A stretch of DNA of 40,381 bases from Candidatus Curtissbacteria bacterium (GCA_016198325.1 JACQIV010000028.1:1-40381); one strand, 5' to 3'. Shown: positions 260 through 29,278, counted from the first letter of the stretch. Numbers and translations are program-made. Notes: generated from the sequence alone by a model not told the origin.

Positions 260-401
260 CGAGGATCAATTATATCTTCTTTTTGTAGGCAAAAACACTC
301 CTTATTCCCAGCAATATTACCTTCAGGATTTTTGATTTTCAGAGAGAATTGTGATAAATTGAGACTTAGGAGGCAGTCCTCCTTTTCTTTTTTACCCACC
401 C

Positions 402-887: not shown

Positions 888-892
888 CCCGT

Positions 893-1453: not shown

Positions 1454-1563
1454 TGGCCTTCCTCGTCCTCCGACCTGTCCGCCAAAGCTTTAGCATCGGC
1501 GGAAACTTTAGTGAAGGAAGAAAACACAGCATCGGACCGTAAATCAGTAACGGAAATCATAAT

Positions 1564-1854: not shown

Positions 1855-2833
1855 TTCTCTTGACTCTAATTAACCCTGAAGCCGGAATAACCGAAACGGC
1901 ACGCGCCTCAAGTTCGTCCAAAAACAAATTAGCGCCGATTGAGTCGGAGACCATATGCCCGGCAACAACCAAATTTATATGGTGTTTTTTGGCCTCATCC
2001 CTATGTTCGTCTCCGGCATGCATTGTAATAACCGTCCCCACGCCGGCATGGGACATCCGTTCATATATTTCTTTTGCAGCCTCAGTTCCTCCCGTAAAGC
2101 CTCCGACAACAACCTTGCCCGCTCTGCCTTTTTCGCTGCCGGAAAATATATCCGGTCCGGCTTTAAACTTAATGGCTTGCGCGTATTCCGGAATCTTTTT
2201 AATTTCATGCATCACGTCCCCGACCGTGTCAAATTCGCGTGTTTCAAATATGTCGCGCATGTAGCGCCAGCCCATGTTGTCCCAAACCGTATGGATACAC
2301 ATAAGCGGAATGTTAAGAAGCCTGGCAGCATCTACGCTTCTGTAATGATTAACCGGTCCAAACCTTCTCTTTACCTGGGGAATGCGTTCCCGGAAAAGTC
2401 CTTCGGCAACATTTATTGGTACGCCGTACGTTGCCAGCATATCTACCTGCAGATCCATCACTTCGTGCAGGGAAGAGAGCGCGCCGCCTGCAGGATGGTG
2501 GGCAATCATCAAGTGGATGTTTTCCCCTTTTTCGTTAAGTCTATCTGTAAGAACCACTTCTCCTGTATCAAAATCTATGCCTGTAATCACCTTTTCTACA
2601 TTTGTTGTCGGGTCGCCAAATAGAATTCGGGTATCCGAATATGGATTTTCCAAAGTTTCCATATCGAACTCTTCTTTTTTGGAGGTCGGAAGATCTTCGA
2701 AGCGGTTCTTTATCCTTTCAAGATGCTTTTTTACCCCATCCTGACCACGCGGATCTGCATCCACCCCCATTTTTATCGCCAAATCGTAAATATCTTTTAT
2801 TGTCATTGTCTGCAAATGATATAACAAACTCAA
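1808..2833 (-). CDS. Nif3-like dinuclear metal-centre protein (GTP cyclohydrolase 1 type 2 homologue family)
   Basis: 341 aa. Motifs seen: IAHHP..., GTVITMHAGDEH and VVAGHMVSDSIG. The overall layout is typical of the NIF3/YbgI family. Confidence 0.8.
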   Translation of the reverse strand: MSLLYHLQTMTIKDIYDLAIKMGVDADPRGQDGVKKHLERIKNRFEDLPTSKKEEFDMETLENPYSDTRILFGDPTTNVEKVITGIDFDTGEVVLTDRLNEKGENIHLMIAHHPAGGALSSLHEVMDLQVDMLATYGVPINVAEGLFRERIPQVKRRFGPVNHYRSVDAARLLNIPLMCIHTVWDNMGWRYMRDIFETREFDTVGDVMHEIKKIPEYAQAIKFKAGPDIFSGSEKGRAGKVVVGGFTGGTEAAKEIYERMSHAGVGTVITMHAGDEHRDEAKKHHINLVVAGHMVSDSIGANLFLDELEARAVSVIPASGLIRVKRNGGENGRVGSKRKRN

Positions 2834-2920
2834 AACCCGTTCAACTAACGTCCAAGAAAAAATATTAACACAGCAGTGAGATCAAATATTTTAGTTCATA
2901 AATAGTATGTTGACTAAACT

Positions 2921-2946
2921 GTGTTAATGTTTTAAAACATTAACAC
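2921..2946. promoter_or_regulatory. Perfect 26-nt palindrome GTGTTAATGTTTTAAAACATTAACAC, putative operator overlapping the promoter of the downstream TrpR-like gene
   Basis: Verified base by base as its own reverse complement. It ends 1 nt before the ATG at 2947. TTGACT at 2910-2915 lies 17 nt upstream of TAAAAC at 2933-2938. Confidence 0.6.
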
Positions 2947-3381
2947 ATGAGTCAGATTTCTAAAAAAATACTTCCTAAAAGCGTTGAAGTAAGGCTTCTT
3001 GAAAATTTATGGGAAACATTTGGTAGCATTAGCAATAAAAATGAAGCAAAAATATTCTTATTTGATTTTCTATCCAAAACAGAAAAAGTAATGCTTGCCA
3101 AAAGACTGGCCATCGCCATCCTTTTAAAGAAAAATTACGATTTTCGTTCTATTTCAGACTTGCTTAAGGTATCGACTACTACGGTGAATACAATATATAA
3201 ATTAATAAGTTTGAACTCCGAAAGTTACAAGATGCTCATTTCAAAATATAACAGGGGGAAAACTACTAAAGAATTATTTCATGAACTCGAAAGTAGACTT
3301 ATAAAACTACACCCTAAAAATATGAAAAAAGATCTAGGACTTCTCAAAGTAAAACTCGGTCATCGTTCTGATGCGTTCTAA
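2947..3381 (+). CDS. TrpR-like / YerC-YecD family DNA-binding protein (paralog 1)
   Basis: 144 aa. The core E....L.K.EK.MLAKRLAIAILLKKNYDFRSISDLLKVSTTTV matches the Trp-repressor-like YerC/YecD fold pattern. It is clearly a paralog of 11140..11580. Confidence 0.7.
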   Translation: MSQISKKILPKSVEVRLLENLWETFGSISNKNEAKIFLFDFLSKTEKVMLAKRLAIAILLKKNYDFRSISDLLKVSTTTVNTIYKLISLNSESYKMLISKYNRGKTTKELFHELESRLIKLHPKNMKKDLGLLKVKLGHRSDAF

Positions 3382-3546
3382 TGTATTAAAACATTAATAC
3401 AAGCATTCTATATTTGTTTCTTGAGTTTTTTATCCGACAGAGCCAAATACGATATAATAACGGTCTCAAGAGGCCGGGTGCTGAAAAGAGTCGTTCTTGC
3501 TACGCAAGAAATGACAGACGCGTATTCTGGCAGGCATTTGTAATTT

Positions 3547-3630
3547 GCCGCGGTGGCGGAACTGGTATACGCCTACGTCTCAAAAACGTGGGGGCACAAG
3601 CCCATGTGGGTTCGACTCCCACCCGCGGCA
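3547..3630 (+). tRNA. tRNA-Leu (anticodon CAA), class II with long variable arm, no encoded CCA
   Basis: Folded by hand. Acceptor stem GCCGCGG/CCGCGGC (7 bp). D arm GCG/CGC with G13-A22, as in bacterial tRNA-Leu. Anticodon stem TACGT/ACGTG, loop CTCAAAA (U33, CAA). 15-nt variable arm with GGGC/GCCC stem. T arm GTGGG-TTCGACT-CCCAC. Discriminator A. Confidence 0.9.
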
Positions 3631-3656
3631 CTTAAACGGGGTTAGCTATTAAGGAA

Positions 3657-3890
3657 TTGTCAGTTTCTGATCTTAAGCCTGAACATATACAACAAATCCT
3701 GGAGGGCTGGGGACTCGAAAAACAAAGCGAAGACGTTTGGAATTTTTCAAAAACTACAGAAGATGGCAAAATAAAAAGGTTATCAATAGATAAAATTGGT
3801 AAATCCGCAAAGTACTTTTCAAATTACGAAAATGAAAAAACACCTATGAAATTTTCTTTTGGGGAGAAAATCCTAACGAACTTTATATGA
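3657..3890 (+). CDS. Hypothetical small protein
   Basis: 77-aa ORF with a TTG start preceded by AAGGA. No recognisable domain. Confidence 0.35.
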   Translation: MSVSDLKPEHIQQILEGWGLEKQSEDVWNFSKTTEDGKIKRLSIDKIGKSAKYFSNYENEKTPMKFSFGEKILTNFI

Positions 3891-3945
3891 TCGAATATAA
3901 AGGAGAGGGTCATTCTGTCAGAGGCGAGAGTATAAGAGTGAAGGT

Positions 3946-4383
3946 TTAGATAATCTTTTCTAACAAAATTCTAAAATCCCCTACCTTGGACTTTTTTTCA
4001 ACCTCCAGAAAATTGTATCCGTACTTTAATAAATAAGAAAGCATTTCGCGTTTGTTATTCCTGGTTTTGACCTTAATTGACTTATAGCCCTTCTGAATTG
4101 ACCATTTTTCCAAATAATCCATCATTGCTTTAAATACTCCTTTACCCCTAAATCTCGGATCCACCCCTGCCATCCAGCAGTAAAATGAACCGTCGTCATA
4201 CCGGCAATAACCAACAATAGCCCCGGCCAGTTTCTCTTCCACAAACCCTCCGATTACAAGATTATCTTTACCGCTGATTCTGTTTTTGTAAAAACCTTCG
4301 GTGTATTTTTCTCCAAACTCAGGCACTTTATTGGAGATATCTACCGCCATTACCAGTGATATTTTCGAAACGGTTACATTCAC
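3946..4383 (-). CDS. GNAT-family N-acetyltransferase
   Basis: 145 aa. The acetyl-CoA binding pattern V.P.FRGKGV.KAMM..LE is followed by the GY..I.V.T..NN..M...L.K.GY motif. The track start is GTG at 4383; an ATG at 4350 is an alternative. Confidence 0.75.
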   Translation of the reverse strand: MNVTVSKISLVMAVDISNKVPEFGEKYTEGFYKNRISGKDNLVIGGFVEEKLAGAIVGYCRYDDGSFYCWMAGVDPRFRGKGVFKAMMDYLEKWSIQKGYKSIKVKTRNNKREMLSYLLKYGYNFLEVEKKSKVGDFRILLEKII

Positions 4384-4437
4384 ACACGCAATTTAACAAT
4401 AAAAGAGAGCCTGTATCAAACTTTTTAAATGAAATTC

Positions 4438-5802
4438 TTAAAGGTCTGCAACAACCTGGGGCTCAACCGTAGCTTTTTCCCTATGTCTTTCAATTGAATA
4501 AAACCTGACTTTTTCCGCCTTGAAAATCAAATCTATATCCCCGATCGGGCCGTTTCTGTGCTTTTGAATGTCCAATTTAACTTCCTCCAGGTTTTCCGCG
4601 TCCGGCCGCCAGATAAACATAACAACGTCCGCGTCCTGTTCAATTGCTCCCGATTCCCTCAGGTCTGCAAGTTGCGGCTTTCTTGTACCTCTTTGTTCAA
4701 CCGCACGAGAAAGCTGAGAACAGGCAAGCACAGGAATTTTTAGTTCCCGCGCCAGGTTTTTAAGGCTTTGCGAAATTTCCGAAACTTCCTGGACCCGGTT
4801 ATCAAGCCTTCTGCCTGTAATTAGCTGAAGATAATCAACAATTAACAACGACAGTCCGTGCTCAACCTGCAGGCGTCTGGCCTTTGTTCTCATTTCCAGA
4901 ATATTTGCAGCCGGTGTGTCATCGATAAAAAGAGGCGCGTCCGCAAGTACACCCATCGCTTCCTGCAGTTTGTCAAAGTCGTTATCATCCAACTTTCCGG
5001 TTTTAAGTCTCCACGCGTCCACTTGCGACTGTGCAACCAATAACCTGTCAACTACCTCTTCCTTGCTCATCTCAAGGGAGAAAAATCCAACAGGTAAACC
5101 GTCGTTAACGGCAACATGGGCGGCGATATTTAGTGCCAAGGAAGTCTTGCCCTGGCCCGGCCGGGAAGCAAGGATCAACAAATTTGAATCCTGCATACCT
5201 GCAAGTTTACTATCCAAATCACGGAATCCGGTAGAAACCCCTCGCAACCCTCCTGCTTTTTTGTGCAACTCGTCAAGCCTGTCAAAACTTTCTGCAAGTG
5301 CATCCCTAATCGGAAGAAAGTTCTGCCTGAGTTGCTGTTGCGAAAGCGAAAACACAGCCTGCTCCGCTTCATCGAGTACCGATCTGACATCGGAAGTTTC
5401 CTCAAAAGCGGATTCGGAAATTTTGGCACTTGTTGCAATTAATTTCCTTTTAAGAAAATGGTCTTTTACGATTTGCGCATACTGGGTAATATTCGCGGCA
5501 CTCGGGACGGCAGCAGCAAGCTCTGCCAGATAAGCGGCTCCCCCGACAACATCAAACACCCCTCGTTTTTTAAGTTGCGCCGTTAAGGTGACTAAATCAA
5601 TCGGTTCACGCCTCTCGTAAAGTTCGTACATCGATTCGTAAATATCCCCATGGCCGGCCCTGTAAAAATGTTCCGGCCTTATAATTTGTGCAATAGCAAC
5701 AATTGCGTCGCGGTCGATCATTATTGCCCCGATTATCGACTTTTCGGCGTCCTGATCCTGTGGGGGCATTCGACCGGCAGTAGTTGCGGATTTTGATGCC
5801 AT
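4438..5802 (-). CDS. dnaB: Replicative DNA helicase DnaB
   Basis: 454 aa. N-terminal PPQD.EAE.S.IGA...D, Walker A ASRPGQGKTS, IVDYLQL and SQLSR..E.R motifs are present. No intein. Confidence 0.95.
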   Translation of the reverse strand: MASKSATTAGRMPPQDQDAEKSIIGAIMIDRDAIVAIAQIIRPEHFYRAGHGDIYESMYELYERREPIDLVTLTAQLKKRGVFDVVGGAAYLAELAAAVPSAANITQYAQIVKDHFLKRKLIATSAKISESAFEETSDVRSVLDEAEQAVFSLSQQQLRQNFLPIRDALAESFDRLDELHKKAGGLRGVSTGFRDLDSKLAGMQDSNLLILASRPGQGKTSLALNIAAHVAVNDGLPVGFFSLEMSKEEVVDRLLVAQSQVDAWRLKTGKLDDNDFDKLQEAMGVLADAPLFIDDTPAANILEMRTKARRLQVEHGLSLLIVDYLQLITGRRLDNRVQEVSEISQSLKNLARELKIPVLACSQLSRAVEQRGTRKPQLADLRESGAIEQDADVVMFIWRPDAENLEEVKLDIQKHRNGPIGDIDLIFKAEKVRFYSIERHREKATVEPQVVADL

Positions 5803-6566: not shown

Positions 6567-7505
6567 GTGAGTTCGAAACCCGCAGTTGCCTCGTCTCTTG
6601 CTAGAATTGTTATTTTTCTTCTTATTGCTGCCGCTTTTCTTTATTTAATGTATTGGCTTTGGCAAAGACAACCCCGCCTAAATAAAGAGATTTCCCAGGC
6701 TAAAAAGAACGACCAGGTACAAAGTAACACGGAAGAAAAAAATTCCACTTTTGATCCAAAAGAAGGAACTGTCCTAGAAGACGCACAAATCAAACTTAAA
6801 GGCGAGGTTGGTGCAAATTCCTATGTTGCAGTTTACTCAAATGATTATCGTCAACTTACCAGGTCGAATGACAAAGGAACTTTTGAGACTGGAATAGAGC
6901 TTTCCGATGGCCTTAATATTTTCGAAGTTTCAGAATACTCACAGGAATTAAAAAAAGTCGGCAATAAGACAATTATGTATTACCTTCTTTCCGCAAAAGG
7001 CAAATTAGCTATCGACACTGTCTATGCCGGCAACGCAAAAAACATTTTTGACAATCTGCTTACTATCGGAACGCAAGATGGAGAAAAAAAGGCCAGGGCT
7101 TCAAAGCCAACGGTTATCGTTGCGCCTTCGGACGAAGAAGAATCCAAAAAGGAGGCCACCGCTTCTGTTCTATCTGGCGTACGGATCGGAGATTATGTAA
7201 TTGCACTGGGTAAAAAAGATAAGGAAGGGCTTTTGAGTGCCGAGAGAATTGAAATCTTGCGCGAAAATAAACCAAAAGCAAACACCCGCATACTTGCTAC
7301 AATTATTGCAGGAGATATCAAGTCTAACCTATTCAGGGGAAAAGACGAAGCAAATAAAGTCTTGGAATTTTCCATAGCAAAAACTACCGAAGTGGTTATT
7401 AATTCTCAAAAAGGCAAAAATGAAGATATAAAAAAAGACCGCAAAGCAATTATCTTTTTTGAAGGTGGGGATAAAAACATAGTCTTAAAGATCTTCCTAA
7501 TCTAA
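6567..7505 (+). CDS. Hypothetical N-terminally membrane-anchored extracytoplasmic protein
   Basis: 312 aa, GTG start. A single N-terminal TM segment (IVIFLLIAAAFLYLMYWLW) is followed by a beta-rich, Lys/Glu-rich sequence. Confidence 0.6.
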   Translation: MSSKPAVASSLARIVIFLLIAAAFLYLMYWLWQRQPRLNKEISQAKKNDQVQSNTEEKNSTFDPKEGTVLEDAQIKLKGEVGANSYVAVYSNDYRQLTRSNDKGTFETGIELSDGLNIFEVSEYSQELKKVGNKTIMYYLLSAKGKLAIDTVYAGNAKNIFDNLLTIGTQDGEKKARASKPTVIVAPSDEEESKKEATASVLSGVRIGDYVIALGKKDKEGLLSAERIEILRENKPKANTRILATIIAGDIKSNLFRGKDEANKVLEFSIAKTTEVVINSQKGKNEDIKKDRKAIIFFEGGDKNIVLKIFLI

Positions 7506-7551
7506 CCTCAAGTCTTTCCATAATCTGCAGAACTATTTACAATCAATATAG

Positions 7552-8450
7552 ATGCAAAAAGGACCCCCGACACCAAAAGGCTTCCGCGACATAAATCCCG
7601 ATACGGCCAAAAAAAAGGGCGGGCTAATTACCAAAATTACAACCATCCTTAGTGAAAATGGTTTCGTTCCTCTTGAAACCCCGACAATTGAATTTGCACA
7701 AACCTTGAAAGGAAAATACGGGGAGGAAGAAAAGCTTATTTATAAATTCAAAGACCGTGGAGGCAGGGACCTGGCTCTTCGCTACGACCTGACTGTTCCC
7801 CTTGCCAGGTATGTCGCAAACAATCCATCACTTCAGTATCCCTTCCGCAGATATCAAATCGGCCAGGTTTTCCGTGGTGAAAATCCACAGGCAGGCAGGT
7901 ACCGCGAATTCACCCAATTTGATTTTGATACCGTCGGAACAAGCAACATCGAAGAAGACGCAAAAGTTATAGCAGCAGCAATTAAATCGGCAAAAGCAGC
8001 CGGTCTAAAAACACCTACCATGGCTATAAACGACCGGGGAAATTTCGAAGGCATTCCGCCGGATGTTATCCGGGCAATAGATAAAATCCACAAAATTCAA
8101 AGAAAAGGGGTGGAGGCTGAACTTAAGGAAAAAGGGTATAAAACAGATGAAATTGAAAAGTATTTGAATGGACTTTTAAATTCCAGACCTACTGAAAACT
8201 TTAATCTTTTGTACAATATACTAAATACGACCTAAGGACAGACGTCGACTTCCATTTTGATTCAACTCTTGCCCGCGGGCTTGATTACTACACCGGTGCA
8301 ATTTTTGAATTAAAAGCAAACAATGACCCGAAATCATTATCGATAGGAGCCGGCGGGAGGTATGACAATTTAATAGGTAAATTTTCCGGCAAACAAATTC
8401 CCGCCGTCGGTTTTTCATTTGGCCTTGACAGAATTATGGACCTTATCTAA
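7552..8450 (+). pseudogene. hisS: Histidyl-tRNA synthetase-like catalytic core, interrupted by a frame shift and lacking an anticodon-binding domain
   Basis: Frame 1 (7552..8235) carries the PKGFRD, LRYDLTVPLARYVA and GRYREF.QFDFD motifs. The 0-mod-3 frame (open 8205..8450) continues with ...[21 protein letters not shown]...[34 protein letters not shown]-stop (motif 3). The switch must fall within 8205..8232. Confidence 0.75.
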
Positions 8451-10716: not shown

Positions 10717-11102
10717 GACGCGTTCGGATAGAACTGAAAAATCGAGTGCTAAAATTTGTTAGACCGAAGGGAAAATCGCCAACCACAGAACTGGAAAAAC
10801 CTGGGAAAATATTGCCAAAAGAATGAACAGACCTTGAAGCCCACTCAACTAATTAAATCTGAGGGGAAGAACCGCTAACCCCATTTTTGAGGAGGGTACC
10901 GCTTAGATCATCTGGATGCTCGACATTTTCCTGGACTAACAAATCTATGGAGCATTTGTTTTGATCTTCTTTTCTAGCACTCCATAATGAGTAATCATCT
11001 TTCCGGTTTTCTTTCATAACATTCACCGGGCATTTTACTTTTCTATAGGCTACCTGTCAATAATACACGTCACACTTGTTAGACCCACAACACAGACAAT
11101 TA

Positions 11103-11132
11103 CTTCACTGTTTCGAAACAGTGAAGTATAAT
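11103..11132 (+). promoter_or_regulatory. Perfect 24-nt palindrome CTTCACTGTTTCGAAACAGTGAAG fused to a consensus TATAAT -10 box
   Basis: Palindrome 11103-11126 verified as self-complementary. TATAAT at 11127-11132 lies 7 nt before the ATG at 11140, which implies a leaderless mRNA. Confidence 0.65.
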
Positions 11133-11139: not shown

Positions 11140-11580
11140 ATGACTCAAATCTCTAAGAAGATTGTGAAAAAGGATTTAGAGACAGAAATAAACGAAATCT
11201 TCTGGTCGACAATTGCAAGATTTAACAAAAAAGACGAGGTCACCCTCTTCTTCTCCGAACTGTTCACATATAACGAGAGAGTAAATCTTGCCAAGAGAAT
11301 TGCAATAGCTATCTTGCTTTCAAAAGGATATGACTGGAGATCCATCAAAGATTTAATAAAAGTGTCCGAGGGAACAATTGCAAAAATTTCCGCGAGGATA
11401 AACTCAGCCGGTTTCAAACTGCTTTTTAAAAAATTAGAAAACGATGCCCGGTGGAGAATGTTTTGGAATGACCTTGTTAAAACTTATTTGATTGCCACTC
11501 ACCCAGATAAATACGCTCGGCTTGGAGACGAAGGCGTTGAAAAAGTTATTCTTAAGAAGAAAAACAACTTGCTGCATTGA
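11140..11580 (+). CDS. TrpR-like / YerC-YecD family DNA-binding protein (paralog 2)
   Basis: 146 aa. The core ERVNLAKRIAIAILLSKGYDWRSIKDLIKVSEGTI is alignable to 2947..3381. Confidence 0.7.
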   Translation: MTQISKKIVKKDLETEINEIFWSTIARFNKKDEVTLFFSELFTYNERVNLAKRIAIAILLSKGYDWRSIKDLIKVSEGTIAKISARINSAGFKLLFKKLENDARWRMFWNDLVKTYLIATHPDKYARLGDEGVEKVILKKKNNLLH

Positions 11581-12077: not shown

Positions 12078-12136
12078 TCAATTTCCGATTCTGTTCCTCG
12101 ACACCTTTCTGTTGAGTCCCCAGAGTCGGACCTTCT
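12078..12136. repeat. Type-1 59-nt palindromic repeat, degenerate copy (C)
   Basis: Gap-free alignment to copy 19328..19386 gives 45/59 identities. It fills the convergent gap between the DedA stop (12077) and the HtrA stop (12142). Confidence 0.75.
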
Positions 12137-12141
12137 ACCCA

Positions 12142-15991: not shown

Positions 15992-17113
15992 CTATACACT
16001 AAACCTAAACTCCACAACCATTCCGTCGCAAACTTCATCCTTTTTCCCTATCGTTAAAACTTTACCTGCAGCCCGCGCGGCTTTCCAACCACCAAGATCA
16101 ACAAATTGCCTCCAGTCAATTACGTCTGCTGCAATAAAACCCCTTTCAAAATCCGTATGGATTACCCCCGCAGCTTGTGGCGCCAAAGATCCGACTTTTA
16201 TTGTCCATGCCCTTACTTCCTTTGGGCCTGCAGTTAAATATGTAGCCAAATTCAACAGTTCGTAACCTTTTTTAATTAGCCTTACAAGCCCCGGTTCCTC
16301 AAGTCCAACTTCTTTGAGGTATTCCACAGCTTCTTCGTCGGAAAGAGCTGAAAGCTCCTCTTCCAGCTTTGCGCTTATGAACAAGGTCCGACCCTGTTCG
16401 TAGACGGCTGACTGTCCGGTCGCCAGGGTCGGACCTTGTGCCTGTCCCGACAGGGCACTTTCATCCGAATTAACTACCACCATATACTTTTTCGCAGAAA
16501 GCAGAGAAAGCTCCTTGATCTTCTCCAAATCATCAGCTTCCATAACATCAGCAAGCCACTTGCCTTCTTCGATAAGTTTCTTTGCTGCCTCCATCGTTTC
16601 AAGAATTTTTCTGCGGGGATCATTTTGAGTAGCCGTTTTAAGTTCCCTGTTGAAACTGTCAATTCTTTTCTCCAAAGTTTCCAAGTCTTTCAATAGTAGC
16701 TCGTCTTTTAATACTTCGAGGTCGTCTTTCGGGCTAGTACCGGTTTGGATAATATCCGGGTTTTTAAAATCACGCACAACAAAAACAATCGCATCTACTT
16801 CCCGGATATGAGACAAAAACTGGTTTCCCAAACCCTCTCCTTTATGTGCACCCTTCACCAAACCGGCTATATCCACAAAGCGGACAATAGCGGGAATTAC
16901 CTTAAACCCCGGAGACAACCCTTCGGATTTTTCTACCGTTTCCTTCAATGCACCAAGCCGTGGGTCCGGAACTTCTACAACCCCTACGTTTGGCTCAATA
17001 GTCGTAAACGGATAATTCTTAGCCTCGGCAACTTGTTTTTTTAAAAGGGCATTAAAAAGCGTCGACTTCCCAACATTCGGTAGTCCAACTATCCCCACGA
17101 AAAGTGATGACAT
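15992..17113 (-). CDS. ychF: Redox-regulated ATPase YchF (Obg-family)
   Basis: 373 aa. Contains GIVGLPNVGKSTLFNAL, DIAGLVKGAH.GEGLGNQFL, LEEPGL and TAGPKEVRAWTI..G..APQAAGVIHTDFE.GFI. Confidence 0.95.
   Translation of the reverse strand: MSSLFVGIVGLPNVGKSTLFNALLKKQVAEAKNYPFTTIEPNVGVVEVPDPRLGALKETVEKSEGLSPGFKVIPAIVRFVDIAGLVKGAHKGEGLGNQFLSHIREVDAIVFVVRDFKNPDIIQTGTSPKDDLEVLKDELLLKDLETLEKRIDSFNRELKTATQNDPRRKILETMEAAKKLIEEGKWLADVMEADDLEKIKELSLLSAKKYMVVVNSDESALSGQAQGPTLATGQSAVYEQGRTLFISAKLEEELSALSDEEAVEYLKEVGLEEPGLVRLIKKGYELLNLATYLTAGPKEVRAWTIKVGSLAPQAAGVIHTDFERGFIAADVIDWRQFVDLGGWKAARAAGKVLTIGKKDEVCDGMVVEFRFSV
16381..16439. repeat. Type-1 59-nt palindromic repeat (copy A) embedded in frame within ychF
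   Basis: 16-bp perfect inverted arms: ACAAGGTCCGACCCTG (16381-16396) and CAGGGTCGGACCTTGT (16424-16439). It is 50/59 identical, without gaps, to the intergenic copy 19328..19386. Confidence 0.85.
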
Positions 17114-19327: not shown

Positions 19328-19386
19328 ACAAGGTCCGACCCTGTTCCTCGACGGCCAACTGTCGAGTCCCCGGAGTCGGACCTTGT
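19328..19386. repeat. Type-1 59-nt palindromic repeat (copy B), intergenic
   Basis: Outer arms ACAAGGTCCGAC/GTCGGACCTTGT (12 bp) and inner stem CTCGAC/GTCGAG. It lies between 19390..19725 and the response regulator gene. Confidence 0.85.
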
Positions 19387-22732: not shown

Positions 22733-22758
22733 AAAAAAAGCCTCGCGACAAACGAGGC
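22733..22758 (-). terminator. Rho-independent terminator on the minus strand (GCCTCG-loop-CGAGGC followed by U7)
   Basis: Stem 22740-22745/22753-22758 with a 7-nt loop. An A7 run on the + strand at 22733-22739 gives a U-tract on the - strand. Confidence 0.6.
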
Positions 22759-22818
22759 CAAGAATTTACAAATCATTTCCCCAAAAAGCAAAAAGCCTCT
22801 TTTTGGGTGTCCTAAATT

Positions 22819-23266
22819 TTAGTCAGACCCTTCCTTGGCACCCGTCGCCCCGCTTTCCCGCGGGGATCGGGTTGTCGGATGCTTAAAACCTACCCTTCAT
22901 CGCTGTTTGATTACAGCTGCGAAGTACACTACTTGAGTGGATTTACCCGTATTTGTTTCGGGTAGAAGGTAGATTTTGCGCAGGAAGTATTATGCGCGCT
23001 TATTCCCTCGCCTGGTGGCGAAGAACAGTTCTAGCATCACTCTTTTTTTCGAACTTGTTCGAAAAAAGTTCTACTTATTTAATTGTTAACTCTGAATATT
23101 CTACCCGAAAACGAATATTGAATCAACCCCTTAGGATTGTCCCAAGGCTCCAATTTCGAATATTTTACTTCTGGAAGAATAGCCGGATATTAACCGGATT
23201 TGTGACTTGGAATCTTCGTCCCTCTCTCCCCAATAAGCAATTCGCCCGCACATCCTGAAAATTATA
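22819..23266 (-). other. Promoter-driven gene-free unit: either a decayed SRAP-like (MCGR...) CDS or an uncharacterised ncRNA
   Basis: Minus-strand TATAAT at 23266-23261 lies 7 nt upstream of the ATG at 23253. That ATG opens only a 40-codon ORF, MCGRIAYWGERDEDSKSQIRLISGYSSRSKIFEIGALGQS. Downstream frames are riddled with stops. The terminator at 22733-22758 closes the unit. Confidence 0.35.
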
Positions 23267-23333: not shown

Positions 23334-23354
23334 GAACGAGGACTGTCCTCGTTC
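23334..23354. repeat. Type-2 palindrome GAACGAGGAC-T-GTCCTCGTTC (single unit)
   Basis: Perfect 10-bp arms, located 12 nt beyond the stop of the Cas4-like gene. Confidence 0.85.
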
Positions 23355-23365
23355 TAACAAGCTTT

Positions 23366-24118
23366 TTATTCAACTTCGGAAGCAGCTTCGCGGTATTTGC
23401 AGAAATCGCAATCGTCGCCGGGCTTGGGAAGTTTATCGTTTTTAAGGCATTCGATTGCGGAAAGAATTACCCCTTCCACCCAATCGGTGTTACCTTCGTA
23501 TGGAATTACCTTAATATCAAATTCCAGTTTTGCGTCAAACGCTTCTTTATCGGCGCGTCCGTTGCAGTAAACAAAATACCCCGTGTCGCTAACTTTATGT
23601 CCGTTTTTGGCAAACAACCACTGGTAAATTTCCATCTGCCGCTTGTACCCTATCTGCCACTCGGCATCCAGAGTTACTTCATCTTCTTTGCTGGTCGCTT
23701 TGTAATCTACAATAATAAACTCCCCTTTTGGATTAACCCAGACATCATCTACCCCGCCTGTGACAATCACGTTTGAGTGATCGATTCGGAATGTGATGCC
23801 GGCACGTAGTGAATCGCGCCATTCGTCTATTTTTTCGTGAGCAAGCGGAATTGCGTCCACTTTATAATGTTTCATTAAAGGATGCGCCGTACCTTTTGCG
23901 CGGTGGATATCAAATTCTTTTTTTAGTAACTTATCTACTGCGGAATTTAAGGAAAAAGGATAACCCGGGGGTTGAGCTACTCCAAGGCGTCTATCCAAAT
24001 AAAAACATCGCGGACAATTTATATAAAGGTCGATTTTACTGCGGCTTAAACGGAAGGTATCTTTAGATGAAGGGTCAAAAAGATTCCGTGTTCTTTTGGG
24101 ATTATAATAATCGCTCAT
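23366..24118 (-). CDS. PD-(D/E)XK nuclease, Cas4/RecB-like with Cys cluster (orphan; no cas genes in the window)
   Basis: 250 aa. Contains LYINCPRCFYL (N-terminal Cys motif), GGVDDV (Asp), IIVDYKAT (D-x-K), QMEIYQWL (QxxxY) and a C-terminal CDFCKY. Confidence 0.75.
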   Translation of the reverse strand: MSDYYNPKRTRNLFDPSSKDTFRLSRSKIDLYINCPRCFYLDRRLGVAQPPGYPFSLNSAVDKLLKKEFDIHRAKGTAHPLMKHYKVDAIPLAHEKIDEWRDSLRAGITFRIDHSNVIVTGGVDDVWVNPKGEFIIVDYKATSKEDEVTLDAEWQIGYKRQMEIYQWLFAKNGHKVSDTGYFVYCNGRADKEAFDAKLEFDIKVIPYEGNTDWVEGVILSAIECLKNDKLPKPGDDCDFCKYREAASEVE

Positions 24119-24269
24119 AACTATTACTTTTTATTTTTCTTTGGTTTCCTAATTTCCCTTTTTTGTTTTCCCTGGCTATGTGCCACAAAAACCACCTTCC
24201 TTCCCCATTATTATATATTACAACTACCTAAGAAAAACTTATTTAAAAGAAGAGACCTTGTCGGGGGAG

Positions 24270-25304
24270 TCAAAAAGGACTATCAGTTTCACAACCGTCT
24301 TCATCGTAGTTATGTCCATCGAAATATGAAATATCACCACGTGCGTCCCCGTGAGATAAATAAGTTTGTTCCCATTCATCGACCATCGCATCCACAGCTT
24401 CTTCATTTTGCATTAGTTCGTTTTGTGATGTTTCTGCGACTTGATAATTATCTTCATTTATTTTTCCAAATATTTGGCTATTTTCTTCTGCACCATTTTT
24501 AATTATTTCAGATACATTAACAAGATTTTTATTTACCGTACCGAATTGTAAACTTCCTAATTCCGGATTTTTAAATCTCAAATACCTAATCTCGTGTCTT
24601 GGTTGACGCGAACTGTACCTTCTTTCTACATTGCAACCCTTAAGTGGATTCTTATAAGCACTAATTAGTTCTTCTTTGATTATGTTTTTGTGTTCATCAT
24701 TAAAATATTCAAGATTAGGTAACAAAATACTTCTTCTTGCAACGAGTATATTATTTTCCGGTTGCATCGCACTATTTGTGTAATTTGGTATAAATCTAAC
24801 ACTATCATCTGTACGAACACCTTTAATAAAAAGAAGGTTTATCTGAAATCTACTTAAGTCTATTTGTTTAAAATCTGCCGTTAATGGGAACCACAGCGAA
24901 ACAGAAAACTTGTCAAACAACTCCTTGTTAAAATCACTATTAGACCATCCATTTATGTAGGGGGCATGAGTTTCTCTTCTGTAATTAAATTTTAATGTTT
25001 CTGAAATCTCGACAAATTTCGTTGTTCCGGAATAGGCAAATATTTCTGCATTTTTTTCGTAAAAATCGGAAATATTTGTTGTTTCTGTGCGTTTTACGTC
25101 AGCATGCAATGGATAAATCACATCGTCTTTAAGTTCGCTAATTAAATTACTCAAGCCCGTTTTTACAATACATTCGGAATAAAGATTTGTAGCTTGTTCA
25201 TGAATTCTTAACTTAAGCTCCCTGTCGTTGAAAACTCCACGATCTGGAGGAGGTTGAAGGGGTTGCGTAGGTGGACGGTATTCTATATCTTCTTTTAAAC
25301 CCAT
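24270..25304 (-). CDS. Hypothetical protein, no recognisable domain, acidic C-terminal tail
   Basis: 344-aa uninterrupted ORF in a visibly AT-rich stretch. TATAAT at 25319-25314 lies 9 nt upstream of the ATG, with no Shine-Dalgarno sequence. Confidence 0.65.
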   Translation of the reverse strand: MGLKEDIEYRPPTQPLQPPPDRGVFNDRELKLRIHEQATNLYSECIVKTGLSNLISELKDDVIYPLHADVKRTETTNISDFYEKNAEIFAYSGTTKFVEISETLKFNYRRETHAPYINGWSNSDFNKELFDKFSVSLWFPLTADFKQIDLSRFQINLLFIKGVRTDDSVRFIPNYTNSAMQPENNILVARRSILLPNLEYFNDEHKNIIKEELISAYKNPLKGCNVERRYSSRQPRHEIRYLRFKNPELGSLQFGTVNKNLVNVSEIIKNGAEENSQIFGKINEDNYQVAETSQNELMQNEEAVDAMVDEWEQTYLSHGDARGDISYFDGHNYDEDGCETDSPF

Positions 25305-25551
25305 AGTGAAAGTATTATACGCTGGTGTGCAAGGTTTATAAAAAAAATTTAAACACTCTCTATGTGCAATCTAATAAGTCAAATGACATAACCCTGAGTT
25401 ACTAAAGTCCCGAACGAAGCTATGGATATCAAGTAAGTTTCGGAGTGCAAGCACGCCATCATTAAAATTTCGAAGCGCAAACGAGGAAATAGTACCGGGA
25501 TGTGGATTTCGGCAATTTGTTAAGGCGGTATTTAGTATAAAGTATGCAGTC

Positions 25552-25830
25552 TTAAGCCTCAGACGTTAAGGCGTAGTTTTGGAAAATGGTGCTGTACATA
25601 AGAGAATCTTCTGCAATATCCTTTTTATTTTTTTGAAAAAGAATTCTTTTTGTATTTAATATGGACTTTTGAATATAAACCGGCAGTTTATTTTTTTTGA
25701 CTTCCTCAATTCTTTTTAATGCTTCTTCCCTGAATCTTTCAGCAGTTTTGTCCGACCCATTGCGAAAAGCAAGCGCTACTCTTTTGAGGTCCATTGACAA
25801 GGATGATATCGTTATTTGTTCTTCACTCAT
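25552..25830 (-). CDS. Hypothetical small helical protein
   Basis: 92 aa. Its start overlaps the stop of the upstream gene by 4 nt (ATGA). Confidence 0.5.
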   Translation of the reverse strand: MSEEQITISSLSMDLKRVALAFRNGSDKTAERFREEALKRIEEVKKNKLPVYIQKSILNTKRILFQKNKKDIAEDSLMYSTIFQNYALTSEA

Positions 25831-26165
25831 ATTATTTCTTTAAAAAAATATCTTGTAAGCCTCTCGTACTCTTTTTTTATTTTATCACTTTGTATTTCAT
25901 TACTTGTGTTGTTATCATTAGGCCTAATATTGATAAACGAATTATAGTCAATTATTTTCGTTTCCAAATCGATTCCCCCACCCCATAAATCTGACTGATT
26001 TGAGTTTTGTTTAAGTAATAATTGTTTTGATTCAAAATGCCTGTTTGCACCAGCCGAACAAATCTTTTTTTTTATATCAATTACAGTCTTGATATAACTT
26101 TGGAATTCTTTCTGAAGTTTTTTTATTTCTTCTTTGGTATAGGGAGTTTCTTTGGCAATTATCAT
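25827..26165 (-). CDS. Small uncharacterised protein resembling the family I recall as DUF5674
   Basis: Taking the ATG at 26165 gives MIIAKETPYTKEEIKKL...VIDIKKKICSAGANRHFESKQLLL..NSNQSDLWGGGIDLE...IDYNSFINIRPNDNNTS.EI.SD.I. The GG..H...E..LL..GS.Q.D.WG / INIRP pattern is recalled from memory. The track's longer TTG start at 26273 would run into the repeat. Confidence 0.55.
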   Translation of the reverse strand: MIIAKETPYTKEEIKKLQKEFQSYIKTVIDIKKKICSAGANRHFESKQLLLKQNSNQSDLWGGGIDLETKIIDYNSFINIRPNDNNTSNEIQSDKIKKEYERLTRYFFKEII

Positions 26166-26269
26166 TCCAAGATAATAGCACCAGGATAAGGACTTCGGCA
26201 AAAATAGTGGGTAATTCGTAGTTGGTAGCTTGTAGCCCTTTACTTCAAAAAAAGTCTTGGACACTTTCA

Positions 26270-26353
26270 ACAAGGTCCGACCATGTACAACTAACGAGGA
26301 CTGTCCTCTTCAAGAAGAGTCGTGCCCCTGGTCTAAATGAGGACAGTCCTCGT
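26270..26353. repeat. Chimeric repeat: type-1 left arm (26270-26288) abutting a 60-nt type-2 composite element (26294-26353)
   Basis: ACAAGGTCCGACC (the type-1 arm) is followed by ACGAGGACTGTCCTC...GAGGACAGTCCTCGT. The composite matches 27681..27728 except for a 12-nt indel (GTGCCCCTGGTC) and 2 substitutions. Confidence 0.8.
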
Positions 26354-26382
26354 TCCGTCGTTGTTTTCCTTATTGCCAATCC

Positions 26383-26757
26383 GTGATAGAATTCACAGGC
26401 TCTTATTTTGCTGTAAATAAATTTATGGCAGAAAGAATCGCAAGAAATTTAAACAGGCGCGGAAGAAGCTCTAAGTACTGCCCGAGACGTGATGTTAGTC
26501 CCCGACAGGAATTGAGTGAGTCCACTCCTTGGGAAAGAACAGAAGTAATCCTCTCGCAGACACTTAAAAACTACTCCGAACTCTACACTCACCATACGGA
26601 CGCACTTCTTGAATTTTTTACGATCAAAACGCAAACACCCATCGACCAGCAGAGAGAAAAGCTTAATCAATTCATCGAAAAACACAAGGGGTCGATTGAA
26701 ATACTCAAACCGGCGTTCACGAAGATAAACGAAATTATTAGCCAGCAACGCTTTTAG
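26383..26757 (+). CDS. Hypothetical protein
   Basis: 124-aa ORF with a GTG start; the alternative ATG at 26425 gives MAERIARNL.... No recognisable domain. Confidence 0.45.
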   Translation: MIEFTGSYFAVNKFMAERIARNLNRRGRSSKYCPRRDVSPRQELSESTPWERTEVILSQTLKNYSELYTHHTDALLEFFTIKTQTPIDQQREKLNQFIEKHKGSIEILKPAFTKINEIISQQRF

Positions 26758-26768
26758 GTTGAAGCCCT

Positions 26769-26789
26769 AAACGAGGACAGTCCTCGTTT
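26769..26789. terminator. Type-2 palindrome AAACGAGGAC-A-GTCCTCGTTT acting as a likely bidirectional intrinsic terminator
   Basis: Perfect 10-bp arms flanked by A/T runs on both sides, sitting between the convergent genes 26383..26757 (+) and 26812..27039 (-). Confidence 0.65.
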
Positions 26790-26811
26790 TACTCGTTTCT
26801 AACCTCTTTAA

Positions 26812-27039
26812 CTATTCCCCACCCAAGTTTTCGTTCTGTTTTTGTTGAAGCTGGTTTTGGAGATCATTAACTTTATTTTGGACATCACGCGGGTTGGTTG
26901 GAATATCTTGACCTGCTCCAAGGTCAACAGCATTATTCGCTTCGCTTTTTGAAAGTAGCTTTGAAGTTATCAGGATCATCACTACCGCCAAAATTAGTAC
27001 ACCGATAATCAACACTATAAAACCGGCAAGACCACGCAT
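26812..27039 (-). CDS. Small single-pass membrane protein
   Basis: 75 aa. N-terminal TM segment (GFIVLIIGVLILAVVMILI) followed by a Gln/Asn-rich tail. Confidence 0.5.
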   Translation of the reverse strand: MRGLAGFIVLIIGVLILAVVMILITSKLLSKSEANNAVDLGAGQDIPTNPRDVQNKVNDLQNQLQQKQNENLGGE

Positions 27040-27042
27040 AAG

Positions 27043-27633
27043 CTAAGTATAGAGTTTATTGAGTAAAGAGTTAAGATCTGTTTTCTTAACTTCAAAGCGA
27101 AGCAGTTTTTCGGCAGGAACTGTGAAAGATTTATGCAGAATAGAGTCGACTTTCCTCCAGTGGCTTGCCTCCAAAAAAGCGCTGTTGAAGATTAATCTTT
27201 TTTGCTTCTTGGTCAGTTTCTTAAAATCGGGGTTTTCCGGCAACGTTTTCACAACTTCAATTGTTCCAGAAAGCTGGGCATGGCAATAATCCATGACTGT
27301 TTTTAAAGACATAAAACTGATAAATCCTCTGTGAATTTTGTGCCTGACATCGCCGTTATCTTCTATTACTCTTGCGTGATATGCAGCAAAATCTTTCTTC
27401 AAAAAAGTGGCATCATAATTTTCTTCATCAAGGGACGGATCCATAAGACCCATTTCAGTTAAAAAATCCCTAATTATTCTTACGCCTTGTTCCTGAAACT
27501 CATTAAGCCTTCGCTTTGGGACCTCGATTGCCGGGTCGGGAAATTCGTCATTCCGGCTGACAATATGGAACTGTGGTCTTTGTTGTTCTTGTGTTCTTTC
27601 CACAAAAAAAGGAGCGTCGCTTCGGCGTTCCAT
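27043..27633 (-). CDS. Hypothetical protein
   Basis: I prefer the ATG at 27633 (MERRSDAPFF...). The track's longer start at 27681 would read through the type-2 repeat. No recognisable domain. Confidence 0.55.
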   Translation of the reverse strand: MERRSDAPFFVERTQEQQRPQFHIVSRNDEFPDPAIEVPKRRLNEFQEQGVRIIRDFLTEMGLMDPSLDEENYDATFLKKDFAAYHARVIEDNGDVRHKIHRGFISFMSLKTVMDYCHAQLSGTIEVVKTLPENPDFKKLTKKQKRLIFNSAFLEASHWRKVDSILHKSFTVPAEKLLRFEVKKTDLNSLLNKLYT

Positions 27634-27680
27634 AAGAGGGAATGATAACAGTGTTGAGGCTAAATGTAAAGGGACACCCA

Positions 27681-27728
27681 ACGAGGACTGTCCTCTTCAA
27701 GAACAGTCTAAACGAGGACAGTCCTCGT
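27681..27728. repeat. Type-2 composite palindromic element (48 nt): ACGAGGACTGTCCTC...ACGAGGACAGTCCTCGT
   Basis: The two terminal units are reverse complements of each other, and each unit is itself palindromic. It lies between 27738..28211 and 27043..27633. Confidence 0.85.
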
Positions 27729-28901: not shown

Positions 28902-28955
28902 GGTCGAAAGTATACTTGAGCCTTATCTATAAATCAACCAGACTGTTGTAAAAGC

Positions 28956-29228
28956 TTGTCAAAAAATTCAACCGACCTTTACATTTCCGAATTGAAACCG
29001 GAGGAATTTGCGCACGAAGCACCGCCATTTTATCATACGGAAAATTTAAAAATTGTAGGGGAACCCCTAATAACATTCGACGATGTTTACCACCGTGCAG
29101 AAACCTGGAACCAGGTAACCAAAGTTGATAATGTGAGCGATAGGGTTTTCGTTGAAGACACAGATCCTCGGTTATCAGAATTCCTGATAAAAGCCCCGTG
29201 GCTCCACCCTTATAACCCTCAAGGCTAG
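28956..29228 (+). CDS. Hypothetical small acidic protein (uncertain)
   Basis: 90-aa ORF with a TTG start. Its composition is more protein-like than the overlapping minus ORF 28927..29247. No Shine-Dalgarno sequence or domain support. Confidence 0.3.
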   Translation: MSKNSTDLYISELKPEEFAHEAPPFYHTENLKIVGEPLITFDDVYHRAETWNQVTKVDNVSDRVFVEDTDPRLSEFLIKAPWLHPYNPQG

Positions 29229-29278
29229 TAATCGGCTTGTACTCCAAATCCTAATCCGTTTGTGGATATAATTAGTTA

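Follow-up and report, generated by a model that had tools for sequence, protein, structure and literature searches.

The locus analyzed here raises the question of what a set of near-perfect palindromes represents among the genes of an AT-rich region: whether these sequences delimit gene cassettes, as an initial annotation had proposed, end or regulate transcripts, or belong to a repeat that spreads in its own right. The window, that is, the whole 40,381-nt stretch of DNA analyzed, is an entire contig from the core chromosome of a bacterium of the ultra-small CPR (Patescibacteria), and counts given for the window cover 40 kb of this genome.

Type-2 palindromes and their relation to type 1

The 17-mer GAGGACNGTCCTC was identified six times in the contig (at 23338, 26296, 26339, 26773, 27683 and 27714), against a chance mean of 0.05 and with none of 100 dinucleotide shuffles reaching six instances. 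The six units, of the form GAGGAC-W-GTCCTC, match the 17-mer at 16 to 17 of its 17 positions, have flanks that are unrelated between copies and are spread over four loci. Allowing up to three mismatches returned no type-2 site in the window beyond the six, in agreement with the earlier statement that the remaining 36 kb holds no further copies. The type-2 loci, and those of a second palindrome family (type 1), are as follows:

12095..12137, partial type-1 composite, between convergent genes
16381..16439, type-1 composite in the YchF reading frame, units 42 nt apart centre to centre, translated as QGPTL…QGRTL
19328..19386, type-1 composite, intergenic, between two minus-strand genes
23334..23354, single type-2 unit (GAACGAGGACTGTCCTCGTTC), perfect 10-1-10 palindrome, 11 nt past the stop of the Cas4-like gene
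26270..26286, single type-1 unit (ACAAGGTCCGACCATGT), 7 nt from composite 1
26293..26354, type-2 composite 1 (arms 26293-26315 and 26332-26354), consisting of a T-centred unit, a 32-nt spacer and an A-centred unit
26769..26789, single type-2 unit (AAACGAGGACAGTCCTCGTTT), perfect 10-1-10 palindrome, between convergent 124-aa and 75-aa ORFs
27680..27728, type-2 composite 2, equivalent to composite 1 minus a 12-nt segment (GTGCCCCTGGTC), with T- then A-centred units, 9 nt past the stop of a 157-aa gene and upstream of the 212-aa gene

The perfect 10-bp arms ascribed to the two single units were confirmed, as were the shared core of the composites and their separation by two substitutions and a 12-nt indel, which is bounded by GTC repeats. 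The common core, TCTTCAAGAA(G/C)AGTC, has no other exact copy in the window, where a single site with two mismatches lies at 27295-27309. Element lengths range from 21 to 62 nt, and the arms of composites, in the window and in the CPR families described below, from 13 to 20 nt. Separate assemblies from two other samples contain the same sequence (1 SNP in 14 kb; 99.95% identity over 2.2 kb), and it is therefore not an assembly artefact.

Together, the two families contribute at least 10 units to the 40 kb. Their 17-mers have 12 of 17 positions in common; of the five that differ, one is the central base and the others make up two symmetric pairs that leave the palindrome intact. The architecture is also the same, with the 42-nt unit spacing of type 1 comparing with 43 and 31 nt in type-2 composites 1 and 2. 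The kinship of type 2 with the type-1 core suggested earlier thus held up, as did the adjacency of composite 1 to a type-1 arm. The ORF bearing the type-1 copy in YchF is intact and full length when compared with solved YchF. The data support the view that type 2 is a genuine repeat family with kinship to type 1.

All type-2 copies in the window are intergenic, and random intergenic placement of four loci would bring them within 4.4 kb with P = 0.009. This clustering and the exclusively intergenic location would also fit a local function.

The palindromes lie in a variable accessory region

As initially described, the region is AT-rich: GC content is 38.1% at 23334-27728 and 41.9% in the rest of the window, falling to 33.9% at 24119-26293, the lowest-GC 2.2-kb stretch of the contig. 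Its genes, two of them ORFans, are listed below:

23366..24118, minus strand, Cas4-like PD-(D/E)XK nuclease gene (PF12705, E 4.5e-14)
24270..25304, minus strand, 344-aa ORFan with 33% GC and a positive codon score
25552..26273, minus strand, overlapping 92-aa ORF and DUF5674 gene (PF18924, E 2.4e-19)
26383..26757, plus strand, 124-aa ORF (likely ATG 26425), with composite 1 and the 26769 unit on its two sides
26812..27681, minus strand, 75-aa membrane ORF and 212-aa gene (likely ATG 27633)

The Cas4-like protein has at least 8000 homologues, is about 80% identical across CPR and is encoded in synteny with 217-aa and 279-aa genes in the relative L177; the gene is a conserved anchor adjoining the variable region and is not itself variable. 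For the 344-aa protein, two large protein searches (1.84 billion cluster representatives) yielded no homologue. A word-indexed protein search was likewise empty for the 212-aa protein, whose only relative, 40% identical, was found by tblastn in L176/L177. The genes beside the Cas4-like gene are wholly different in three relatives, where they encode GmrSD, an NmeDI-like nuclease, a reverse transcriptase and toxin-antitoxin proteins. This complete difference in the fetched relatives indicates that the palindromes occupy a variable accessory region. The initial annotation had proposed a comparison of related genomes for such variability with breakpoints at the palindromes; the region does differ completely, but type-2-like palindromes are absent from the variable regions of the relatives. 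The units were also said to sit at the edges of the island and at every change of transcription direction within it. Their positions are as described, but the strand of the 124-aa ORF is contested: codon scores favour the plus strand (+0.10 vs -0.18 per codon), whereas a public gene call made on an identical contig has an ORF on the minus strand in its place.

Hairpin stability, transcript ends and promoters

For the 23334-23354 unit, RNA folding of either strand predicts a hairpin of -15 to -16 kcal/mol (z about -3.5). A single long hairpin is predicted for composite 1, with 16 bp in its stem and energies of -34.5 and -41.9 kcal/mol for the two strands (z -6.2 and -7.6). Composite 2 likewise gives a long hairpin, with 15 bp in the stem and an energy of about -31 kcal/mol, and the z-scores of composite hairpins range from -4.5 to -7.6. 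Such stable hairpins, three of the four loci being located 9-22 nt after stop codons, could potentially be purpose-built terminators or mRNA-stabilizing structures of the island, resembling each other through local duplication and involving no mobility. The 26769 unit, which is followed by TTTTACTCGTTTC on the plus strand and hence by TTTT, had been considered a clear terminator. That role is plausible, but a consensus terminator scan does not flag the unit, and its TTTT belongs to an extended stem. The only unit passing the scan is the one at 26308-26296 on the minus strand, and terminator-like sites in the window are at chance level (23 vs 19.8 expected). Composite 1, moreover, lies between two divergent gene starts, those of the plus-strand 124-aa ORF and of the DUF5674 gene. 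A terminator role alone would not conserve the sequence of the stem, and here that sequence is shared among copies with unrelated flanks.

The units could alternatively be operator sites through which a dimeric DNA-binding protein co-regulates the island genes. They are perfect 8-1-8 palindromes, promoter-like -35/-10 pairs begin about 10 nt downstream of both composites (TTTACA-17-TATCAT at 27670-27642 for composite 2 and the 212-aa gene; an extended -10 at 26383-26391 for composite 1), and the 12-nt indel changes the unit spacing from 43 to 31 nt, approximately one helical turn. Two of the four loci, however, are at gene 3' ends and off promoters, no DNA-binding domain was detected among the island proteins, and copies of the motif in housekeeping ORFs of other CPR genomes cannot be operators. 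We consider this explanation very unlikely. Genuine operator-like palindromes are present in the window, directly at TrpR-like genes, and they differ in appearance from type-2 units.

An occupied site in a closer relative

A closer relative (L036/L045/L022), with proteins 67-79% identical to those of the window and synteny with window positions 400-5800, carries AAACGAGGACTGTCCTCGTTT in an insert of about 190 nt between a 161-aa gene and the EF-P gene, where the window has 5 nt. The unit in L036 is identical to the 26769 unit of the window at 22 of 22 nt and, as would also suit a terminator, lies between convergent genes. Its location between core genes indicates that type-2 palindromes are not specific to the island. 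No direct repeat suggestive of target-site duplication was found at the five sites of this lineage (those of the window and L036).

This occupied site bears directly on the proposal that the units delimit and mobilize gene cassettes as recombination sites, either attC-like or mediating inversion. The region does vary between relatives; two directly oriented A-centred units that share CTAAAYGAGGACAGTCCTCGTT stand on the two sides of its only plus-strand gene, and inversion of the spacer between the arms is seen in other genomes. Pfam scans of about 50 window ORFs, however, detected no integrase, transposase, recombinase or Y1/HUH protein, and the motif occurs outside islands and inside genes while being absent from the relatives' variable regions. 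Integron attC sites are similar in being imperfect palindromes (55-140 nt) that lie at cassette 3' ends and recombine as folded single strands, but the window has neither integrase nor attI, the flanks of the units do not fit the R''/R' consensus (RYYYAAC…GTTRRRY) and the gene blocks are of mixed orientation. The cassette proposal is not supported and appears highly improbable.

Distribution of the composite element across CPR genomes

The exact two-unit composite pattern, GAGGACTGTCCTC-N10-40-GAGGACAGTCCTC, comprising 26 fixed bases, gave five matches in 185,579 genomes (one per species), all five in CPR. A relaxed pattern returned at least 119 loci, of which approximately 92 belong to CPR, and the matches listed come from about 54 MAGs that represent many classes; since this pattern also catches ordinary terminator hairpins, of which kind the 27 non-CPR matches are, and since the number of loci is a lower bound, this CPR share is semi-quantitative only. 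Up to eight loci per MAG were present among the matches listed. Entire elements, spacers as well as arms, are found again in other genes and lineages, and their spacers fall into families of 12, 13, 15, 16 and 28 nt. No protein family is shared by the neighbours of the elements in the fetched loci. On the most likely reading, which we regard as probable, the general unit consensus would be CAAGGAC-W-GTCCTTG, or more broadly AAGG-N5-CCTT, with CGAGGAC-W-GTCCTCG as the dialect of the window.

The CPR composites are mostly located within genes or beside gene 3' ends. Among 94 analyzed, 41 (~44%) are contained in ORFs of 150 aa or more, each of them in frame, 33 lie at most 80 nt from a gene 3' end, and none splits a gene or breaks its frame. 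Confirmed hosts are LigA, UvrB, PcrA/UvrD, DnaG, GatA, TsaD, NifS/IscS, LeuS and UvrA. The in-gene copies encode peptides of the RTVL…RTVL type and add 12-18 residues; comparison with solved UvrB shows the copy in that protein as a clean insertion of 18 aa. In LigA from four lineages the arms are identical even at synonymous sites, with the spacer inverted in one lineage, and a second LigA site is found in three states, either empty or occupied by a type-2 element or by an AAGG-CGAGA-CCTT hairpin. In 19 additional hairpins the arms enclose other 5-nt cores and remain perfectly complementary; a single TsaD gene has five of these. The synonymous identity, the inverted spacer and the complementary arms point to constraint at the level of DNA or RNA and not of protein. 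The copies close to gene 3' ends would again agree with dedicated terminators, but that explanation leaves the identical stems, the conserved spacers and the in-frame copies unaccounted for, and it appears unlikely.

Dependence on DNA uptake is generally assumed for CPR bacteria, and the existence of motif dialects, of coding as well as intergenic copies and of inverted pairs could suggest uptake signals enriched by biased uptake, like the DUS of Neisseria or the USS of Haemophilus, both of which often form inverted pairs acting as terminators. Such signals occur about once per kb genome-wide and arise by substitution, whereas the type-2 density is far too low and uneven (6 units within 4.4 kb of the window and none across the other 36 kb; in CPR loci, about one additional unit for every 15 kb), and the copies in genes keep their spacers conserved and are true insertions. 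An uptake role was rejected, its probability being minimal.

A probable miniature nested-palindrome repeat and its possible spread

Taken together, the type-2 palindromes are probably a lineage dialect of a CPR-wide, non-coding miniature repeat built of nested palindromes, a family of which a literature search found no description. The replicating entity would most likely be the composite, in which two inverted units surround a short spacer within 35-60 nt and form one long hairpin; single units would be remnants or half-copies. Mobility is suggested by the distribution of the repeat and by the differences between orthologous sites. Copies appear to have dispersed to unrelated sites by copy-and-paste, probably through a single-stranded hairpin recognized by a putative trans-acting enzyme, and persist only where harmless, in intergenic DNA or as in-frame protein insertions of 12-18 residues. 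The copies in the window may thus have accumulated in an accessory region that is variable and weakly constrained, where RNA hairpins just after stop codons may serve incidentally as transcript-end or insulator structures.

In architecture the type-2 elements resemble the REP/REPIN sequences of Pseudomonas and Enterobacteria, which are associated with RAYT transposases, mostly form inverted doublets around a spacer within one hairpin and leave singlets that resemble remnants (PMC3116915). Two of the four window loci are T..A doublets with 15-16-bp stems, and type 1 is alike; several sequence groups a few bases apart coexist in a genome, as types 1 and 2 do, and copies cluster and lie near gene ends. 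REPINs, however, are essentially extragenic, unlike the in-frame CPR composites and the type-1 copy in YchF; they have a single-copy RAYT (Y1/HUH transposase) gene with the repeats on its flanks, and Pfam scans of the ~50 window ORFs found none. REPINs number tens to hundreds per genome; the counts here are at least 10 units of both types in 40 kb and up to eight perfect composites per MAG among the matches listed. The window units also lack the GTAG/CTAC tetranucleotide and are themselves near-perfect palindromes.

In-frame insertion recalls the Rickettsia palindromic elements, which span ~100-150 bp and whose conserved peptide has 30-50 residues (PMC10969869). Both are palindromic repeats of reduced genomes in host-dependent bacteria, have no known transposase and insert in frame into unrelated housekeeping genes whose protein is kept (LigA, UvrA/B, DnaG, GatA and TsaD here, and YchF for type 1). 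The CPR elements are shorter (35-60 nt, 12-18 residues) and, of the window families, only type 1 is intragenic; sequence homology is unlikely given the different phylum. Bacterial MITEs (Correia, ERIC, SPRITE, BOX/RUP), usually of 100-400 bp, with target-site duplications and a parent IS whose ends match theirs (PMC10969869), are likewise small non-autonomous elements with terminal inverted repeats, comparable to the 13-20-nt arms, that cluster, insert adjacent to each other and, when transcribed, provide terminators, promoters or targets for RNase III; they differ from the type-2 elements in that the five sites show no direct repeats and the window contains no IS.

A TIGR guide-RNA array was also considered and rejected. 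These arrays comprise 5-15 tandem units with alternating edge and loop repeats, 9-nt spacers and an adjoining Tas gene, whereas the type-2 elements are dispersed singles and doublets, with no tandem array and no Tas (Nop-domain) gene. The mitochondrial double-hairpin elements and GC-cluster or palindromic repeats of Allomyces, yeasts and Volvox (~25-80 nt; PMC2670323) are organellar and unrelated in sequence, but they too are very short mobile elements, of one or two hairpins, that have invaded both intergenic and coding DNA of small genomes.

Type-2 palindromes in the window

The type-2 palindrome (GAGGAC-W-GTCCTC) is represented in the window by six copies of GAGGACNGTCCTC, at 23338, 26296, 26339, 26773, 27683 and 27714. 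The mean expected from shuffled sequences is 0.05 copies, and none of 100 shuffles reached six. As the initial annotation had accurately described, the six copies resolve into two single units and two composites:

Type-2 palindromes of the window
23334-23354: single unit, perfect 10-bp arms around one base
26293-26354: composite of a T-centred and an A-centred unit
26769-26789: single unit, perfect 10-bp arms around one base
27680-27728: composite of a T-centred and an A-centred unit

No further type-2 copy was detected elsewhere in the 40,381 bases of the window, which is the entire contig, when up to three mismatches to the 17-mer were allowed. Both composites contain TCTTCAAGAA(G/C)AGTC, which has no other exact copy in the window, and they differ by a 12-nt indel bounded by GTC repeats and by two substitutions. 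When folded as single strands, the solo units yield hairpins near -15 kcal/mol, and each composite folds into a single long hairpin whose stem measures 15-16 bp (-31 to -42 kcal/mol, z -4.5 to -7.6). At the gathering score, Rfam matched only the tRNA-Leu; across 22.5-28 kb, with E up to 1, it returned just two matches, both at chance level. The DNA of the window was also assembled independently from two other runs, with one SNP in 14 kb.

Three metagenome contigs from a closer relative (L022, L036 and L045; L-numbers denote loci fetched from other genomes or metagenomes) encode proteins 67-79% identical to those of the window and are syntenic with its positions 400-5800. In these contigs the homologue of the 161-aa gene is separated from EF-P by an insert of about 190 nt that contains AAACGAGGACTGTCCTCGTTT, identical over 22 nt to the unit at 26769 in the window, and a degenerate copy of the C-terminus of EF-P. 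Since the relative carries a unit at a site where the window has only 5 nt, the family is dispersed within the lineage, and its occupancy of orthologous sites varies.

Distribution of composite elements across the CPR

One genome for each of 185,579 species was scanned for composite patterns. The exact pattern GAGGACTGTCCTC-N10-40-GAGGACAGTCCTC returned five matches, all in CPR MAGs (two Portnoybacteria, Yanofskybacteria, Nealsonbacteria and one labelled 'Saccharibacteria'); all five are perfect nested palindromes, each with distinct flanks and a distinct spacer. The relaxed pattern AGGACTGTCCT-N8-38-AGGACAGTCCT, which also picks up ordinary hairpins flanked by A-runs and T-runs, returned at least 119 stretches (at least 121 composites). 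Among the matches listed, about 92 loci came from about 54 CPR MAGs, with up to eight loci from one MAG, and their hosts include Roizman-, Woese-, Doudna-, Uhr-, Berkel-, Kuenen-, Vogel-, Nomura-, Campbell-, Zambryski-, Nealson- and Yanofskybacteria as well as Paceibacterota. The 27 non-CPR matches among those listed mostly resemble such ordinary hairpins. Several copies each were found in an Eggerthellaceae MAG and in two AT-rich 'Proteobacteria' MAGs, so the family or analogues of it may extend beyond the CPR. Neither the T..A nor the A..T order of the composite patterns had a match in 2.9 million viral contigs.

Scans for single units had little power, most of their matches being unrelated terminator hairpins that coincidentally share the same apex: the 19-mer had five matches in the species genomes against about four expected by our own estimate, the 17-mer matched 47 metagenome stretches, approximately what chance and natural hairpins would give, and it had one match in the viral contigs. 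The only true relatives among the single-unit matches were L022, L036 and L045.

Architecture and recurrence of whole elements

The consensus unit is CAAGGAC-W-GTCCTTG, of which type 2 of the window is the variant CGAGGAC…GTCCTCG; type 1 (CAAGGTC-S-GACCTTG), a related family in the window, departs from type 2 at the centre and at two base pairs, both swapped so that the palindrome is preserved. Entire elements recur across different genes and lineages together with their spacers (for instance TTTGATTCTGTA, TGGGGnAnnnCTCTTA, TGCCAGATTCTGGCA and a 28-nt palindromic spacer), a signature of templated copying. Loci that had been picked only for type 2 held 19 more hairpins with AAGG-N5-CCTT arms and other cores that were still perfectly complementary.

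In Nealsonbacteria (L060 2790-2850, L145 7130-7180), a strong, conserved promoter-like TTGACA-N17-TATACT lies on the minus strand, about 60-80 nt from two copies of the 49-nt element of that genome.

Copies inside genes

The positions of 94 CPR composites were classified: 41 fall well within ORFs of 150 aa or more, compared with 81% for random positions; another 33 are no more than 80 nt from the 3' end of a gene, and 20 are elsewhere. Full-length host ORFs identified by NCBIfam are LigA, UvrB, PcrA/UvrD, DnaG, GatA, TsaD, NifS/IscS, LeuS and UvrA, and PilD was identified as a further host by eye only. The in-gene elements are read in all three frames (RTVL…RTVL or RTVL…GQSL; GLS…DSP; DCP), the RTVL frame accounting for about 60% of them. 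In none of the 94 cases does a composite split a gene into two frames, which argues against an intron or a ribosomal or translational bypass for the in-gene copies and favours their translation under purifying selection. Copies are tolerated only in frame or between genes.

Set against solved structures, the UvrB element appears as a clean insertion of 18 residues separating conserved motifs, and the LigA element lengthens its host by about 9 residues compared with the E. coli enzyme. In four LigA lineages the arms of the element are identical at synonymous sites, and at the first LigA site the 16-nt spacer is inverted in one lineage (L165 versus L065, L098 and L166). A second LigA loop (L087, L173) exists in three states, holding a type-2 element in Zambryskibacteria and an AAGG-CGAGA-CCTT hairpin in three lineages, and being empty in a fourth. 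The constraint is on the nucleic acid and not on the protein, because synonymous sites are identical, the spacer is inverted, the LigA loop has three states and the alternative cores are complementary.

The window holds a type-1 example of the same kind. The composite at 16381-16439 lies in frame within an intact YchF GTPase gene, where it is read as QGPTL…QGRTL, in a region that aligns to the solved YchF without length change. An intergenic element at 19328-19386 is a near-copy of it, with about 80% identity. Five of the 19 hairpins with other cores are in-frame insertions in a single TsaD gene of a Paceibacterota genome (L103 2174-3208), where their AAGG-N5-CCTT arms enclose five different cores.

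A hypervariable locus beside a conserved Cas4-like gene

The window belongs to the core chromosome of a CPR/Patescibacteria bacterium and encodes DnaB, EF-P, RF, L31, S6, SSB, YchF, HtrA, CtpA and an ECF sigma factor together with the CPR-typical families DUF5667, DUF5663 and DUF5674. The palindromes lie in the part of the contig with the lowest GC (33.9% for 24119-26293 versus 41.9% outside the island, 23334-27728), and the probability that four loci drawn at random from intergenic DNA would cover no more than 4.4 kb is 0.009. The 344-aa protein of the island has no homologue in either of two large protein databases; the 212-aa protein had none in an indexed search, and its sole relative, found by tblastn, is 40% identical. 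A search for close relatives through the PMT_2 gene yielded just one, 47% identical.

Homologues of the Cas4-like PD-(D/E)XK gene (23366-24118) number at least 8000, with about 80% identity across the CPR, and in one genome the protein is 92% identical where neighbouring proteins are only 52-58% identical. In relatives, the gene keeps the 217-aa and 279-aa genes as neighbours on one side; the other side is taken up by unrelated defence or mobile genes, namely GmrSD, an NmeDI-like nuclease, HTH regulators, a reverse transcriptase, type III restriction-modification genes, MazE and Fic. In the window and in L176-L181 the gene always has a shifting set of defence or mobile genes next to it. The window lacks a CRISPR array, and searches for defence systems and phage families matched only this gene. 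Given a conserved anchor with unrelated genes on its other side, 24.1-27.0 kb is a hypervariable accessory locus.

The initial annotation had proposed that the palindromes bracket and partition an AT-rich island into gene cassettes. A variable, AT-rich island is supported by the lowest GC of the contig and by the replacement of gene content in relatives. A role of the palindromes in bracketing or mobilising cassettes is not supported: GGWC-N-GWCC palindromes number zero in the Cas4-anchored loci of these relatives, and a unit also occurs outside the island. A weak co-occurrence of the Cas4-like gene and a unit in L004 was not reproduced in L176-L181. In the annotation of the window, the palindromes should be labelled repeat elements and not regulatory sites or cassette boundaries.

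Relation to known repeats and mode of propagation

REPINs, which are copied with RAYT transposases (PMC3116915), are alike in architecture, but the CPR elements are not restricted to extragenic DNA and have no known RAYT. Rickettsia RPEs likewise go in frame into housekeeping genes, but the CPR elements are two to four times shorter; the elements therefore fit neither definition. They also differ from MITEs in having neither the target duplications nor the parent IS that define these. Integron attC sites are excluded by the absence of an integrase from the window, the lack of an R''/R' consensus and the mixed gene orientation, TIGR-Tas arrays by their different architecture, and uptake sequences by too low a density and by the in-gene copies being insertions. 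The closest analogues in size are mitochondrial double-hairpin elements. The classification that suits the elements best is a novel form of miniature palindromic repeat, whose interest past the window comes from the spread across the CPR and the in-gene copies. A full-text literature search of incomplete coverage (palindromic, MITE, in-frame insertion, motif) returned no description of such elements in the CPR.

The elements constitute a multi-copy repeat family that forms hairpins, differs in presence or absence at orthologous sites and shows spacer inversion. By analogy with REPINs and RAYTs, they are probably copied via a folded single strand by a trans-acting enzyme, single units probably being remnants of composites; some copies may instead come from fold-back or template-switch. 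Neither an enzyme nor a target duplication was found for the elements, and an all-against-all comparison of ORFs in loci L001-L061 revealed no partner protein beside them. Copies just 3' of stop codons might act as transcript-end or insulating hairpins, roles described for other small repeats (PMC10969869).

The most far-reaching reading, to which we give slightly less than an even chance, is that of a CPR superfamily, new to the literature, of 35-60-nt nested palindromes (AAGG-N5-CCTT, with lineage dialects such as types 1 and 2), actively copied as DNA hairpins by a putative, possibly CPR-specific enzyme into intergenic DNA and into in-frame loops of essential replication, repair and translation proteins. 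CPR genomes are about 1 Mb and are usually portrayed as poor in repeats and mobile DNA. If the reading is true, the elements would be a bacterial counterpart of Rickettsia RPEs and mitochondrial double-hairpin elements, would supply minimal CPR genomes steadily with protein insertions, and would add a new case of selfish DNA lasting in minimal genomes. A dispersed family of hairpin repeats that many CPR classes share and that LigA, UvrA/B, DnaG, GatA, TsaD and aminoacyl-tRNA synthetases tolerate would also account for some of the unusual short insertions seen in CPR proteins, yield markers useful in strain typing and in checking MAGs for mis-assembly, and point to a putative hairpin-recognising enzyme.

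Other features of the window

GC skew is negative nearly throughout the window (cumulative -8.9 over 40 kb), which suggests a strong strand-composition asymmetry without a switch in the window. Two different 28-nt perfect palindromes, at 2920-2947 and 11101-11128, lie directly upstream of the two TrpR-like genes (2947-3381 and 11140-11580) and look like autoregulatory operators; a related 20-nt palindrome at 3382-3401 precedes the tRNA-Leu. The region 6567-8235 may hold a split, truncated or HisZ-like gene: a 312-aa ORF without a Pfam match precedes a 227-aa ORF (7552-8235), whose histidyl-tRNA synthetase match is limited to profile positions 1-159 of 308. A further non-coding element may occupy the 377-nt gap at 28902-29278, whose sole ORF (106 aa) has a negative codon score and is uncalled on the identical public contig. 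Finally, a conserved structured RNA or a leader may be encoded by a non-coding stretch of about 310 nt on the minus strand (22733-23048) that lies upstream of the 217-aa DPBB/RlpA-like gene. Its counterparts in L181 (3829-4233) and L176 (12664-12970) are 88% and 82% identical, where flanking proteins are just 49-58% identical; it has no Rfam match, it ends in a canonical terminator (22759-22739), and its consensus fold comprises 94 pairs, five of them with compensatory changes.
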